The notes beneath the pieces are model-generated. The model did not search any database, was not told where the DNA came from, and was given only the letters and a program-made list of their open reading frames with translations. Shown piece after piece: positions 381-35,072 of a DNA stretch of 64,000 bases. The stretch is taken from contig OZ024751.1 of the NCBI GenBank assembly GCA_964016885.1, positions 25,730,001-25,794,000 of the forward strand, read 5' to 3'. Positions within the stretch are counted from its first letter, which is position 1; each line of letters opens with the position of its first letter. The position numbers and the translations under genes were made by a program. Origin of the DNA: Eledone cirrhosa. Taxonomy: Eukaryota.

Positions 381-577
381 GGAACCAGTAAGACCCCGAC
401 AGCTGAGCTCAAGCCGTTTCGACGGCTAATTCTGGACTCATTCCAGAATTAGCCGTCGAAACGGCTTGAGCTCAGCTGTCGGGGTCTTACTGGTTCCTAT
501 TACCCACTCTACTACCCCAAGTATTGAGTACTTTGGTGCGTTATGGTCCACCTGGTTCCTTACCACTTTTCCTTCGT
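381..577 (+). mobile_element. Family A fold-back element in (TA)n with half-hammerhead
   Basis: Inverted arms 381-436/442-497 plus 80-bp tail; GAAACGGC-TTGAGCTCA-GCTG-TC at 458-480. Confidence 0.85.
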
Positions 578-684
578 TATATATATATATATATATATAT
601 ATATATATATATATATATATATATGTGTGTGTGTGTTTGTGTGTATCTATATACTTATATATCTATATGTATAATATATATGCA

Positions 685-823
685 TGTATATTTAGGGTAA
701 TTATCGACGGTGAATAGACTCGTTGGAGGAATATCGATCTTTATATGAATATATATATGTGTAGACAAGACCACTATTGCTTCAACCAATCTATTCACCA
801 TCGATAACGACCCTAAATATACA
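685..823. repeat. Degenerate inverted repeat (fold-back)
   Basis: TGTATATTTAGGGTAATTATCGACGGTGAATAGA pairs imperfectly with TCTATTCACCATCGATAACGACCCTAAATATACA. Confidence 0.65.
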
Positions 824-913
824 TATACTACACATACATACTTTCTTTCTCTCTCTCTCTCTCTCTCTATATATATATATATATATATATATATATATAT
901 ATTTATATATATA

Positions 914-1103
914 GGAACAAGTAAGACCCCGACGGCTGAGCTCAAGCCGTTTCAACGGCTAATTCTGTCCAGAATTAGCCGTCGAAACGGCTTGAGCTCA
1001 GCCGTCGGGGTCTTACTTGTTCCTATTACCCACTCTACTACCCTAAGTATTGAGTACTTTGGTGCGTTATGGTCGACCTGGTTCCTTGCCACATTTCCTT
1101 CGT
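914..1103 (+). mobile_element. Family A fold-back element
   Basis: Same arms and tail as 381-577, flanked by (TA)n. Confidence 0.85.
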
Positions 1104-1708
1104 TATATATATATATATATATATATATATATATATATATATATATATATATATATATATATATATATATATATATATATATATATGTATATATATATAT
1201 ATATATATATAGAGAGAGAGAGAGAGAGAGAGAGAGAGAGAGAGAGAAAGTGAGAGAGAGAGAGAAAGAGAGAGAGAGAGGGAGAGAGAGGGAGAGAGAG
1301 AGAGAGAGAACAAATGGAAGTAAATAATTCAATAGTGAGGTGGCAAAACTTTAACAAAATTCATCAGAGCAATCGATAAGAGTTCAATATGATCAGTGAC
1401 TTAACTATCAACAAATCATCCAATAAAGATATCAAAGTCATCGATATATCCCACAAATTAATTTTGGTCATCAACAAAAAATTAGTACAGATAATATTAA
1501 AAACAATTGATAATTGAATCAGTCAGTAAGTATATATGTATATATATATATATATATGCGTGTGTATATATATATGTATATATATATGTGTGTGTGTGTT
1601 TTTCGGTGTGTATGCATATATATATATATATATATATATATATATAGTTAGATATATATATATATATATATATATATATATATATATATATATATATATA
1701 TATATATA

Positions 1709-1918
1709 GGAACGAGTAGGACCCCGACGGCTGAACTCAAGCCGTTTCGACGGATAATTCTGGACACAAGAGTCCACTGCGGTCCAGAATTAGCTGTCGA
1801 AACGGCTTGAGCTCAGCCGTCGGGTTCCTACTCGTTCCTATTACCCACTCTACTACCCTAAGTATTGAGTACTTTGGTGCGTTATGTTCCACCTGGTTCC
1901 TTACCACATTTCCTTCGT
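1709..1918 (+). mobile_element. Family A fold-back element
   Basis: Same arms and tail; longer apex ACAAGAGTCCACTGCG; flanked by (TA)n. Confidence 0.85.
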
Positions 1919-2187
1919 TATATATATATATATATATATATATATATATATATATATATATATATATATATATATATATATATATATATATATATATATA
2001 CATATATACAGTATTTTCCGTTGTATTGTAATATAAATATCACACACAGTAGATTGACAGCTCACGTAGAGTTTGCTCGACGGTTCCAGTTGTAGTTCCA
2101 AAAGTAATCCGGAGAAAAATAGAAAGATTTGAATGGATACAAATCTTTATATATATACATATATATATAGAAGAAAGAGGAAAGGAA

Positions 2188-31023: not shown

Positions 31024-32013
31024 TGGTCTTATTGAATTATATATATATATATATATATATATATAGGGGGGGGTTGTGTGGGTGTAGGAGTGGGGGTGGG
31101 GTGCGTGTGCGTGTGTATGTGTGAGTGTGTGGGTATGTGAGTGTGTGTATGTGTGTGTGTGTATATAAACTTCAAGAAATATGTTTGAAAATATTCACAT
31201 CATACACACACCACGTCTAGTGTTATCTTGATGCCAGGATATTTTTAAATGAAAAACGAAAATAATAATTAAAGTAAAATGTATGCAAATGATTTTAAAT
31301 TGAAAAAATATCTATCGCACATCATATATCTATGATTTTTTTACGTAGTGTAAGAAAATATGTGAAAGTAAGTTAAACATTAAATTAACGCATCGTTTCT
31401 TTTTTAGCGTAGTATGGTGTGAAACAGAGGTGTATTTACTATATAATGAAACACACACATACAGCCATATATACATATAGACAGACAGACATACATATTT
31501 ATACACATATATATGTGTGTTTGTACGTATGTATGTATATATATACATATATATATACATATATATATATATATGTATGTATATATATACATATATATAT
31601 ACATATATATATATATATGTATATGTATATATATATAGAGAGAGACATAGATATATATATACATATACACATTTATACACACACATATATATACATATAT
31701 ATATAATATATTCATGTTGGCGTACATCCCCATACATTTATGTACATTAATATTCACAAAAAACATGTACTTAGATTGTCTGTGCATATATGTAGGTCAC
31801 AGGTATATTCAAATAATTATACAAAATATTTACATATATGAGCATCTATGAATATGGTAGGGAATACAAAACCATACACACAGACACACACACACACACA
31901 CACACACACACACACAGACACACACACACACACACACACACACACACACACACACACACACACAGACACACACACACACACACATATATATATATATATA
32001 TATATATATATAT

Positions 32014-32368
32014 ATGATTCCAGTTCCTCAGAAGAATAAGAACACAACCAGGAGCTGGACATATCGATGTATTGGCGGAGTAAAACACACTTCAACAACA
32101 TGCGTACCTGTCTTTCCCACACCTGAAGAGGTCACAGCCAATGATGGCTGTCACCGAAATATATATAGCAATATATCTATAATGTATCATAAACGAAGCC
32201 AAATTTTACATATTTGACTTAATTATTTTATATATATATATATATATATATAAAATAATCAAGTCAAATATGTAAAATTTGGATTCGTTTATTATAAATT
32301 ATAGATATACTGCTATATATATTTCAGTGACAGCCATCATTGGCTGTGACCTCTTCAGGTGTGGGAAA
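32014..32368. mobile_element. Tail-to-tail family B PLE termini around (TA)n, two hammerhead motifs
   Basis: 32112-32230 inverted at 32251-32368; CTGAAGA-GGTCACAGCCA/TGGCTGTCAC(C/T)-GAAA-TATATA-TA-GCA; stem I weak. Confidence 0.8.
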
Positions 32369-32369
32369 G

Positions 32370-32950
32370 GTATAAAGCTCCATTTAATCTACAAATTAAA
32401 GATAATATCCCTAAAAAATGTGTTACTATCCTAAAGAAAAACTTCCCACTAAACCATAAATACGATAAAATTTTAAATAGCTGAACTATCAAATTTTCCT
32501 ACTCCACTACCAAAAATATACAACAGAATATAAGTGCGTACAACGCATATAAATGTAAAAAAAACCCATAAATATACCACCAACACATCAAACCAACCAT
32601 AATACTAAAATAAACCGCAACAAACCACCATCTCCTTCACCTATAACAAGTCCAGTTAAATTCCACACCAAATGTGACTAACTCCCCTGATATAATATTC
32701 ACGAATGGTTGTAACTGTAGAATCAAAAGAAATTGCCCATTAAAGGGAAATTGTCTTATTAATAACAGTCTATAAATGTAAAATTAGCACTAAGGACTCC
32801 ACTTATTCATATATAGGAGCTACGTCTAACCAATTTAAAGTAAGATTTAATACCCACAAACATAGTTTTTAAAATGCCACATTAGCTAATCCAACATCCT
32901 TGGCTGAAACAATTAATAATTATAGAAAAAAGAATATCCCAGCACATAAG
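32370..32950 (+). mobile_element. Decayed PLE thumb/linker/GIY-YIG endonuclease fragment (Naiad-like)
   Basis: APFNLQIKDNI..KNFPLNHKYDKILNS*TIKFSYSTTKNI; CNCRIKRNCPLKGNCL; VYKC..YIGATSNQFKVRFNTHKHSF. Confidence 0.85.
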
Positions 32951-32954
32951 GCCT

Positions 32955-33437
32955 ACAGTAAACGGATTATCACCTTAGTTAAGTGCCAGTTGACAGGGGC
33001 GATCGTCAACAACAGGGGGTGGAGCTCTCTCAAGAGAGCAATTAGAATAGAATTGATAGCCTTTAGCAAGAAAGTAGCTTTAGAAAAAAACAAAACTGAA
33101 AAGGAACTGGTAGATAAAGTAGAAGAGGCACTTAGGAATGGCAGTACAGCTGACGTGCTAGCGGCAAGAACGGCACTAGACCAATTCTTCATTGTGAAAC
33201 ACGAAGGTTGTATTGTCAGAAGTAGAACACGTGCGCTAAGAAACAAGGGAGCAAAAGCTGTTAGCTAGGCTCGAGTGGCAGAGGCGAAAAGTGGCAACAA
33301 ATCCACAATTCGATCTTTGCAAGACAAAGATGGACGCATTCTACTTGAATCCACACAGATGTGCATGGCCTTCCAGCACCATTTTTCACAACTGTTTAGG
33401 AAAAGCGGTACGTCGAGCGAGGTGATGGACTTCAGTA
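32955..33437 (+). mobile_element. Tx1/L1-like ORF2 linker fragment
   Basis: WSSLKRAIR..EGCIVRSRTR..IRSLQDKDGRIL..AFQHHFSQLF with an internal stop. Confidence 0.7.
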
Positions 33438-34914
33438 TATACACATATACACATATACAAACGCACACACAAACACACGACAGACACACACACAAACACT
33501 CATATAGAAAAGAACAAATACTCCACACAGTCACACGCACACACATACATACACAAACACACATATACACGTAGACAAACACAAACATATATAGACACAA
33601 ACACACCACAAACATATATACACATAAAAATACACGCATATATGCCCCAGTATTGGCTCAGCCTATGGAACAAGTAAGAGTATGTAAACACAGACTTTTA
33701 CTTATCATTTGCAGGTCTTCCAACGTAAAAATATGTAAACTCGTATTTCCTAGGGTCACATATTAGGATTATTGATAACAAATATCAACTGAGGTATCAA
33801 CAACATTCACACTAGTCAGAGTTATAGTAAATAATCTACACAAACATATAAATACCTCTACTTATTAACTAACGATCGAAAAAAAGCACGTGAAACATTA
33901 AATTTCAACGTTTGGACAGATTATAGAGTGACATATTCTACTATTAACTATTCACGACAATTCTAACAAAAGAATTTATAAATACAGCTTTCGAAGTGGT
34001 TATTTTTTCAGTTAAACACTATTTATAGTCTAAAGACAAACTTTATGGTATTACTTCAACGGGGTTTACTAAAGCCCCAAATAAAAGTAGATGTGGGGTT
34101 ATGAATTCCTCTTCTCAACCTATACAACGATGCTCGTCGTAAGCACCTGGAACATTATATCAATCACAGGATTGGTTACATAACATTTTATTACGTAAAT
34201 GCTCTTACAGCGATAACAATGAACACATTTTCATTTCAGTCGTGTATATGTTCGGTTAACCACATATTCTTAAGTCAGAACTCTGCAGTAAACTTAATAT
34301 TTAATAACAATATCTACCAATATAGACTGGTTTAAACCATAGTATTGTTATATATACAGCTGCGTTCTTTTTCTCTTCCCCACACACAGGAACACATGCA
34401 CACATATACATACGTACACACACAACACATTGTGTATATATATATATATATATATATATATATATATATATATATATATATATATATATATATATATATA
34501 TATATATATATAGGTGTATATGTATATATATATATATGTGAGTGTATATATATATATATATATATAAAGATAGAGAGAGAGGGGGGAGGTATTTCTAATG
34601 CTATGCTGCTATACATATAAAATATGATACAGCAATAAAGCCTCCAACCGATTAAGAATTTAGCAATAAATAGACAAGACTTGTAAGTTCACCTAGTTGG
34701 AAATGAAACTAGTTTCTCCGCCCTAATCTATTTATCTGTCTTATATTTACAGTTATTTCTGATATCATCGCAAAGGCAGTCTCTTGAAAAAACAGGAAAA
34801 ATAGAAAAAGGAAAAATCGGAAAACCAAATTTCTACTAAACTTAACCATCGTAATTATTGAAATGTTCTCATGATAGCGGCGTGGATATATATATATATA
34901 TATATATATATATA

Positions 34915-35072
34915 ACGAAGGAAGTGTGGTAAGGAACCAGGTGGACCATAACGCACCAAAGTACTCAATACTTAGGGTAGTAGAGTGGGTAATAGGAACC
35001 AGTAAGACCGCGACGGCTGTGCTCAAGCCGTTTCGACGGCTTGAGCACAGCCGTCGGGGTCTTACTGGTTCC
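34915..35072 (-). mobile_element. Family A fold-back element, short arms
   Basis: Reverse orientation; apex falls at AGCCGT-TTCG-ACGGCT. Confidence 0.85.

Follow-up and report, generated by a model that had tools for sequence, protein, structure and literature searches.

Concordant arms and unique apices in a hairpin repeat of Eledone cirrhosa that is probably Penelope-dependent

How can the two arms of a palindromic repeat agree with each other from copy to copy, when the apex between them is different each time? This question is raised by a stretch of 64,000 nucleotides (nt) from Eledone cirrhosa (GCA_964016885.1, contig OZ024751.1, positions 25,730,001 to 25,794,000), hereafter the window, which appears from its letters to be animal nuclear DNA (34% GC, with plentiful TA, GA and TG microsatellites). 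The window contains ten copies of a repeat of about 200 bases, made of a 60-base hairpin and a 78-base tail, which we call family A and number on the copy that starts at 13354. We argue that every insertion most likely builds its palindrome afresh. The mechanism that we favor, to which we give a probability of a little under one half (about 0.47), is that a single source RNA serves, whenever a copy inserts, as the template from which both arms are reverse-transcribed; the two target strands, once nicked, would probably both act as primers, and the products would be end-joined.

Family A was found by BLAST and by a hairpin scan of the window. Seven of its members are complete hairpins, and the others are a tail alone, an asymmetric copy and a lone arm (Table 1). 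The parts follow each other in the order (TA)n, inverted arm, junction, sense arm, tail, (TA)n; an inverted, 5'-truncated copy thus lies head to head beside a sense copy, a build seen in seven of the ten copies. All ten are flanked by (TA)n, and no target-site duplication (TSD) is discernible. The tail, which is 78 nt long in the six young copies, is found on one side alone and at the same point in all seven complete hairpins. The one-sided 78-nt tail, the (TA)n setting and the older hairpin at 20213–20330 are additions to a preliminary description of this DNA, which also did not relate the repeat to Penelope-like elements.

A foldback DNA transposon, or a TA-targeting miniature inverted-repeat transposable element (MITE), could have come to lie in or beside a separate tail element, with almost no interior and with its terminal inverted repeats (TIRs) kept alike by gene conversion. 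The young hairpins are indeed bounded by TA on both sides, and copy 41639 is a tail alone. However, the constant position of the tail, and the fact that its 78 nt lie outside the right arm, speak against such an assembly, as does the absence of TA at the arm/tail border in copy 20213 and in copy 30027 of a sister family (family B).

The preliminary description quoted motifs that are mirrored in the two arms, and this is what we find: GGAACCAGTAAG/CTTACTGGTTCC and CAGC/GCTG in copy 381, GGAACAAGTAAG in copies 914 and 13354, GGAACGAGTAGG/CCTACTCGTTCC in copy 1709, GGAAAAAGTAT/ATACTTTTTCC in copy 28695, and CTGTGCTC/GAGCACAG in the minus-strand copy 34914–35072 (copy 34915 below). It also stated that every copy has its own apex, which is the case for all seven complete hairpins, including copies of the same subfamily; a MITE family, on the contrary, would be expected to have a common interior. 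Relative to a GGAC|GTCC palindrome with no spacer, the apices either gain bases at the centre (inserts of 8 and 16 nt) or lose a few there, and five of the seven copies have a sharp inner limit that is common to both arms. Family A has two fixed outer ends, 13478 and 13556. It is because the apices are unique, the arms concordant and the outer ends fixed that we consider the palindrome to be most likely remade at each insertion and not, as the preliminary description already argued, inherited as fixed TIRs.

It may be, alternatively, that the palindrome and its tail are inherited from the source, and that the centre is later broken and repaired in each copy, which would also leave unique apices. 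Centre-break repair of this kind is known for palindromes. Each apex can be explained by bases gained or lost in the middle of GGAC|GTCC, those of copies 914 and 34915 being deletions between short direct repeats, and two family B copies (41445 and 42145) have an inversion junction in common. We nevertheless consider this inheritance improbable: none of the seven copies keeps a common apex, not even the young ones whose arms have 0–1 differences, and inheritance does not account for the symmetry reached in each of at least four subfamilies, unless remaking of the palindrome occurs at least now and then.

Two runs of raw reads and two sets of contigs were placed on 13410–13560, with reads from both arms piling onto one reference arm. 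The matches amount to 24,635 of 12,467,656 and 25,518 of 12,785,554 reads, that is, about 0.2% of the reads in two restriction-biased runs, and to 20,268 of 16,285,364 and 44 of 8,254,286 contigs. In the two runs, 3,917 and 3,656 reads run on from the arm end at 13478 into (TA)n, with an agreement of 0.80–0.82, which fixes this end; the reads with loose ends before 13419 vary in sequence (1,025 and 930 of them, with an agreement of 0.45–0.47). Among the 15 read joints listed (21 in all), 12 are asymmetric in the manner of copy 48500, connecting 13419–13431 with 13455–13517 on opposite strands, and we count such copies in favor of the mechanism proposed below; symmetric joints would be hidden in these reads because of the restriction cut.

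The mirrored changes had been described as copy-specific, which turns out to be wrong for most of them, since they are common subfamily alleles: G at 13470 is common to copies 381 and 34915, C..C to 1709 and 56799, and A..T to 28695 and 48500. Outside the apex border, 9 mirrored changes and 11 one-arm differences were counted over the six young copies. Common alleles (about 10–36% of the depth in run X1) account for 8 of the 9 former and for 1 of the 11 latter (Fisher p 0.0009), a variant being counted as common if it is one of the 40 of 86 that were listed and reaches at least about 10% of X1 depth; copy 34915 has a mirrored T>A that is outside these 40. Dropped before counting were arm positions 13419–13421, at the apex border (1 mirrored and 5 unmirrored entries), and the old copy 20213 (6 mirrored and 9 unmirrored, in an uncertain alignment), and two adjacent differences in copy 28695 were merged as one event. 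Since mirrored changes are mostly common alleles and one-arm differences mostly rare ones, the mirroring reflects the source subfamily.

Private changes number 8 in about 650 arm nt (about 1.2%) versus 6 in 468 tail nt (about 1.3%), the tail of copy 41639, one base out of register, being left out and the tail at 48518 being kept out of the rate. The preliminary description offered homogenisation within the hairpin as one origin of the mirroring; ongoing homogenisation is unlikely, because the arms have private changes at about the same rate as the tail, and these are not mirrored. Ongoing conversion between arms is therefore disfavored, on small counts, and the arms diverge independently after insertion. 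The same changes, unmirrored and not depleted in the arms, also count against TIRs kept alike by gene conversion; the MITE or foldback transposon, already largely refuted, is very improbable.

The expectation that arms should cluster by locus is borne out in part. In a FastTree tree of 15 arms, all from the window, the two arms are sisters in four of the seven complete copies (381, 34915, 28695 and 20213; support 0.78–1.0). As for the rest, both arms of copy 1709 form a trio with the lone arm 56799 (0.92), and copies 914 and 13354, which are of the consensus type, are unresolved. No clade of left arms with left arms was found in this tree. If arms were drawn randomly by subfamily frequency, the concordance of all six young copies would have a p value of about 2e-4, which assumes that several subfamilies are active, when one may dominate at a time.

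The mechanism that we propose is as follows. A source copy would give rise to an RNA of about 140 nt (sense arm and tail), with a 5' limit fairly fixed at GTCC (13419). The reverse transcriptase (RT)/GIY-YIG protein of a Penelope-like element (PLE), acting in trans, would nick both strands of the (TA)n target. One 3' end would prime complementary DNA (cDNA) at the tail end (13556), and the other at an internal start (13478), 5–8 nt upstream of the stem-loop in the tail, either of the same RNA molecule or of another from the same source. Both cDNAs would run toward the RNA 5' end and be end-joined head to head, which would leave a scar of deleted or inserted bases unique to each copy, the apex; the arms would afterwards diverge independently, like a pair of long terminal repeats (LTRs). 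With one flank primed at 13556 and the other at 13478, and with both cDNAs running to the RNA 5' limit near 13419 before they are joined, the arms would be identical, the tail one-sided and the apex unique. Both target strands are nicked and extended by an anole PLE in vitro, and the tail is bounded by two sites within the RNA at which reverse transcription starts (PMC11167929).

The second arm of a PLE-type element could also be made by fold-back: the first cDNA would reach the RNA 5' end, turn back and copy itself up to a fixed stop or cut at 13478. This is the self-templated synthesis of the preliminary description; it is one of two PLE models and had already been proposed in PMC3846280, which takes the palindromes at head-to-head junctions as an argument for self-priming. 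Concordance is seen in every complete hairpin, copy 34915 with its mirrored T>A outside the listed variants among them, as fold-back would have it, and the ATT motif at 13477–13479 is the cut preference reported in PMC11167929. Moreover, one small native hairpin is the point at which both family D copies (9572 and 23382–23532) turn or end, and this common turning point hints at fold-back. On the other hand, self-templated synthesis fits less well with the apex inserts of 8 and 16 nt, which offer about one base pair for priming, and with copy 48500, whose inverted arm carries sequence that is not present in its sense part. In vitro, the tail boundaries are placed at RT start sites on the RNA (PMC11167929), which is also at odds with it. 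We regard fold-back, the main rival, as rather unlikely, although it explains the strict concordance more simply. The subfamily alleles of the arm and tail of copy 48500 match those of copy 28695.

The two priming events that we favor would call on a PLE protein. We consider it very probable that family A depends on a PLE, and its membership, as a non-autonomous derivative, is likely, not proven. We conclude that it works like a PLE because its geometry matches the published arrangement, with the window context in support: PMC8557442 and PMC3846280 describe an inverted, 5'-truncated copy by a sense copy, a tail at one end and a (TA)n target that hides the TSD. Hammerhead motifs mark the pseudo-LTRs (pLTRs) of PLEs (PMC4209133), but they are not universal, being absent in Naiads. 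A strict hammerhead descriptor has 4 matches in the window, versus a mean of 0.01 in 100 shuffles, and the three sister families B, C and D fit the minimal type I hammerhead; family B at 21184–21606 has an intact one in both arms (21364, minus; 21508, plus). Rfam gives no match over the window at the gathering threshold, and its E-value scans of 13300–13600 and 21150–21650 give generic hairpin and TA matches and no hammerhead model, family B included. One and the same bulged stem-loop stands at the head of the tail in families A and B (outer stem ACTC/GAGT, a TT bulge, and an inner stem that differs but is paired); it starts 5–8 nt after the arm end in both. The apex remnants ATGA and AAGA, which precede GTCC in two family A copies, could be the end of a hammerhead core.

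Family C includes, after its inverted hammerhead repeat, a decayed open reading frame (ORF, 32359–32935) with an RT thumb region, a cysteine linker and GIY-YIG, interrupted by stops and frameshifts and cut off by another ORF-like fragment at about 32960–33430. A 42-amino-acid piece of this ORF has 3 protein matches (best E 4e-8). These proteins have 108 longer relatives; all 29 of those of at least 600 amino acids carry a Y[RV]DD RT core, and a GIY-YIG-type motif at the C terminus is present in 5 of the 6 long relatives listed. These proteins also match two other decayed PLE ORF remnants, at 15946–16314 and 53550–53897 (tblastn E 8e-8 and 2e-22). A word-indexed protein search with the 42-amino-acid endonuclease (EN) piece gave no match; Pfam proposed GIY-YIG for it at E 0.005, below the cut-off, and gave no match for the thumb piece and none for 4 long relatives.

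Several observations weigh against our reading. Regarding the mechanism, the perfect concordance of the arms is easier to obtain by fold-back than by two priming events, and asymmetric copies can also arise by later deletions. The organism of the runs may be a related species and not that of the window (0.72 of sampled words). The restriction-site-associated DNA libraries are biased by a cut at AATT beside the apex, as we infer since 13425 is the end of 7,255 molecules, and fold-back chimeras may be present in them; the summed arm/tail depth in run X1 is about 1.1–1.2, not 2, depth being no copy number. Regarding the PLE nature of family A, the strict hammerhead descriptor has no match in it, no copy contains CUGAnGA, and the putative stem II, as read from the sequence, does not pair. 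None of the three ORF remnants adjoins a family A copy, and translation of the sense strand gives neither a credible protein match (best E 0.06) nor a Pfam match. The 10-base stem-loop motif, which was picked after looking, occurs 13 times in the window (8 in A tails, 3 in three B tails, 2 elsewhere), and the similarity of whole A and B tails is weak, since 91 and 1,526 of 2,000 shuffles score equally well. Last, the tail of 78 nt compares with 30–40 nt in print for PLEs; the hammerhead-bearing tail of family B is also outside this range.

Non-autonomous rolling-circle (HUH) elements of the Helentron/DINE-1 type have sub-terminal inverted repeats around a constant core, a terminal 3' stem-loop and a TT target. 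Family A would share with them an asymmetric inverted repeat, the lack of a visible TSD and the association with microsatellites. But its arms abut at a variable junction with no constant core between them, its stem-loop lies at the start of the tail and not at the terminus, and its target is (TA)n; besides, the sister families carry hammerheads and PLE ORF remnants, and rolling-circle copying would preserve the apex. Such an origin is scarcely credible. We also rejected an autonomous endonuclease-positive (EN+) PLE, as no ORF with RT and GIY-YIG was found in family A; a tRNA-derived short interspersed nuclear element (SINE), as a tRNA scan of the window finds none and SINE-like sequence adjoins copy 56799 alone; and a non-LTR retrozyme, as family A consists of dispersed single insertions with no complete hammerhead core.

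Table 1. Family A copies and sister families in the window (copies are named after their first position, the minus-strand copy 34914–35072 being copy 34915).
Feature	Position	Strand	Description
Family A	381–578	+	Hairpin 378–500, tail 501–578, inside (TA)n; apex TCAT, one G lost; subfamily with G at the 13470 equivalent
Family A	914–1104	+	Hairpin 911–1026, tail 1027–1104; consensus type; apex with a 4-nt central deletion relative to the spacer-less palindrome
Family A	1709–1919	+	Hairpin 1706–1841, tail 1842–1919; C..C subfamily; 4 one-arm differences; apex with a 16-nt insert repeating GAGTCCA
Family A	13354–13556	+	Reference; hairpin 13351–13478, sense arm 13419–13478, tail 13479–13556; 8-nt apex insert; GAAAC-stem-GTC at 13436–13458 in the sense arm, like a hammerhead 3' half; tail opens with bulged stem-loop 13483–13507
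Family A	20213–20385	+	Older, divergent subfamily; hairpin 20213–20330, shorter tail; 3' end approximate
Family A	28695–28885	+	Hairpin 28692–28807, tail 28808–28885; A..T subfamily
Family A	34914–35072	−	Hairpin 34992–35075, tail 34914–34991; centre deleted between AGCCGT direct repeats
Family A	41639–41717	−	Tail alone, between TA runs
Family A	48500–48601	+	Asymmetric: short inverted arm 48500–48516, one A, last 6 nt of the sense arm and tail (48524–48601)
Family A	56799–56855	+	Lone inverted arm without tail, continuing into unrelated sequence to about 56985; C..C subfamily
Family B	21184–21606	−	Hairpin and tail build; arms of about 160 nt, 27-nt apex
Family B, partial copies	23100–23200, 29882–30170, 41445–41565, 42070–42181		
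Family C	32112–32935		Pair of hammerhead repeats, tail to tail, flanking a TA run; decayed PLE ORF thereafter
Family D	9504–9960, 23382–23532		Head-to-head hammerhead repeat

Other features of the window touch these families. The short inverted arm of copy 48500 (48500–48517) ends exactly at GTC|GGGG, the would-be hammerhead cut, a single case that may be due to chance. Beyond the lone arm of copy 56799, the sequence 56856–56985 contains a TTGACGAG motif and a part which we take to be SINE-like; it may be the upstream sequence of the parent or just flank. The family B copies at 41445–41565 and 42070–42175 share one inversion junction, at which the inverted upstream part and the sense downstream part barely overlap, reminiscent of L1 twin priming, and this shared junction is either a local duplication or an inherited junction. 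Hammerhead repeats related to family C are seen at 114–251 and 54601–54955, and the right arm of a family D copy is interrupted by a SINE-like repeat (9695–9880), with a 14-base duplication. The element at 13994–14140 has a hairpin and a tail, and its tail start is clearly related to that of family A (0 of 2,000 shuffles score equally). The hairpin element at 56608–56785, between TA runs, with a tail of about 35 nt and a CTGATGAG motif, is probably a further PLE-type family. A degenerate symmetric inverted repeat without tail lies at 684–824 (ends TTTAGGG/CCCTAAA; single copy in the window), and a SINE-like repeat of about 190 nt is present in over 15 copies or pieces from 5855 to 62619.

The formation of the inverted repeats and tails of PLEs is still called undefined in PMC8557442. 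The geometry and the ingredients of both mechanisms are already in print, so that the surprise is moderate. Our literature search, whose coverage excludes most subscription papers, found no paper on mirrored variants in PLE arms or on palindromic, MITE-like PLEs; the accessible part of PMC13282606 lists Penelope and MITE families of octopus and makes no mention of palindromic PLEs. A metagenome scan returned 4 loci, all chance matches of 20–24 nt in GC-rich DNA, and scans of viral and prokaryote genomes gave no match. No RNA data set is listed among those that contain the sequence, which has no bearing on its expression.

The feature is real and of moderate interest, as a natural test bed for the mechanism of PLE integration. 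Tentatively, family A may stand for a minimal, SINE-sized class of Penelope-dependent retroposons, in which one RNA of about 140 nt is copied twice per insertion into a fresh DNA hairpin. If this is true, the geometry of PLE integration is written into thousands of copies, each with an LTR-like clock of its own; automated tools would label such copies DNA MITEs, and the genome would decide between twin priming and self-priming without bench work. A short, abundant family with several diagnostic subfamilies indeed offers a direct genomic test: discordant arms would point to two templates, and strict concordance with mirrored RT errors to fold-back. The divergence between arms would date single insertions. 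A warning follows for annotation: hairpin repeats in TA runs that are annotated as MITEs may be retroposons.

How does family A compare with known systems? In L1 twin priming, two primings also give a 5' inversion with a unique junction, but what is inverted there comes from another part of the RNA, whereas family A copies the same part twice. The closest geometry is that of the EN+ PLEs (Penelope/Poseidon, Neptune, Nematis and Naiad), for which PMC8557442 and PMC3846280 describe head-to-head inverted pLTRs, a tail at one end, (TA)n and junction palindromes; compared to these, family A has a template of about 140 nt, no ORF, a sharp inner limit and an incomplete hammerhead. The anole Poseidon element PAc resembles it in having two RT starts that bound a tail, near a stem-loop, in nicking and extending both strands, and in its AT-rich target (PMC11167929). 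The likeness drawn here is one of features. PAc is autonomous, its tail lies in the start of its ORF, and head-to-head products are not among the main-text results of that paper. The minimal type I hammerheads of metazoan PLE pLTRs (PMC4209133) have a partial likeness in the GAAAC-stem-GUC half of family A, with its palindromic loop; family A differs from them in having no CUGAnGA, no pairing helix II and a long helix III. Last, the animal non-LTR retrozymes (bioRxiv 10.64898/2026.07.22.740005) are, like family A as we read it, short non-coding repeats that depend on PLEs, but they form head-to-tail tandem arrays with hammerheads, whereas family A is made of dispersed single insertions that are head to head.

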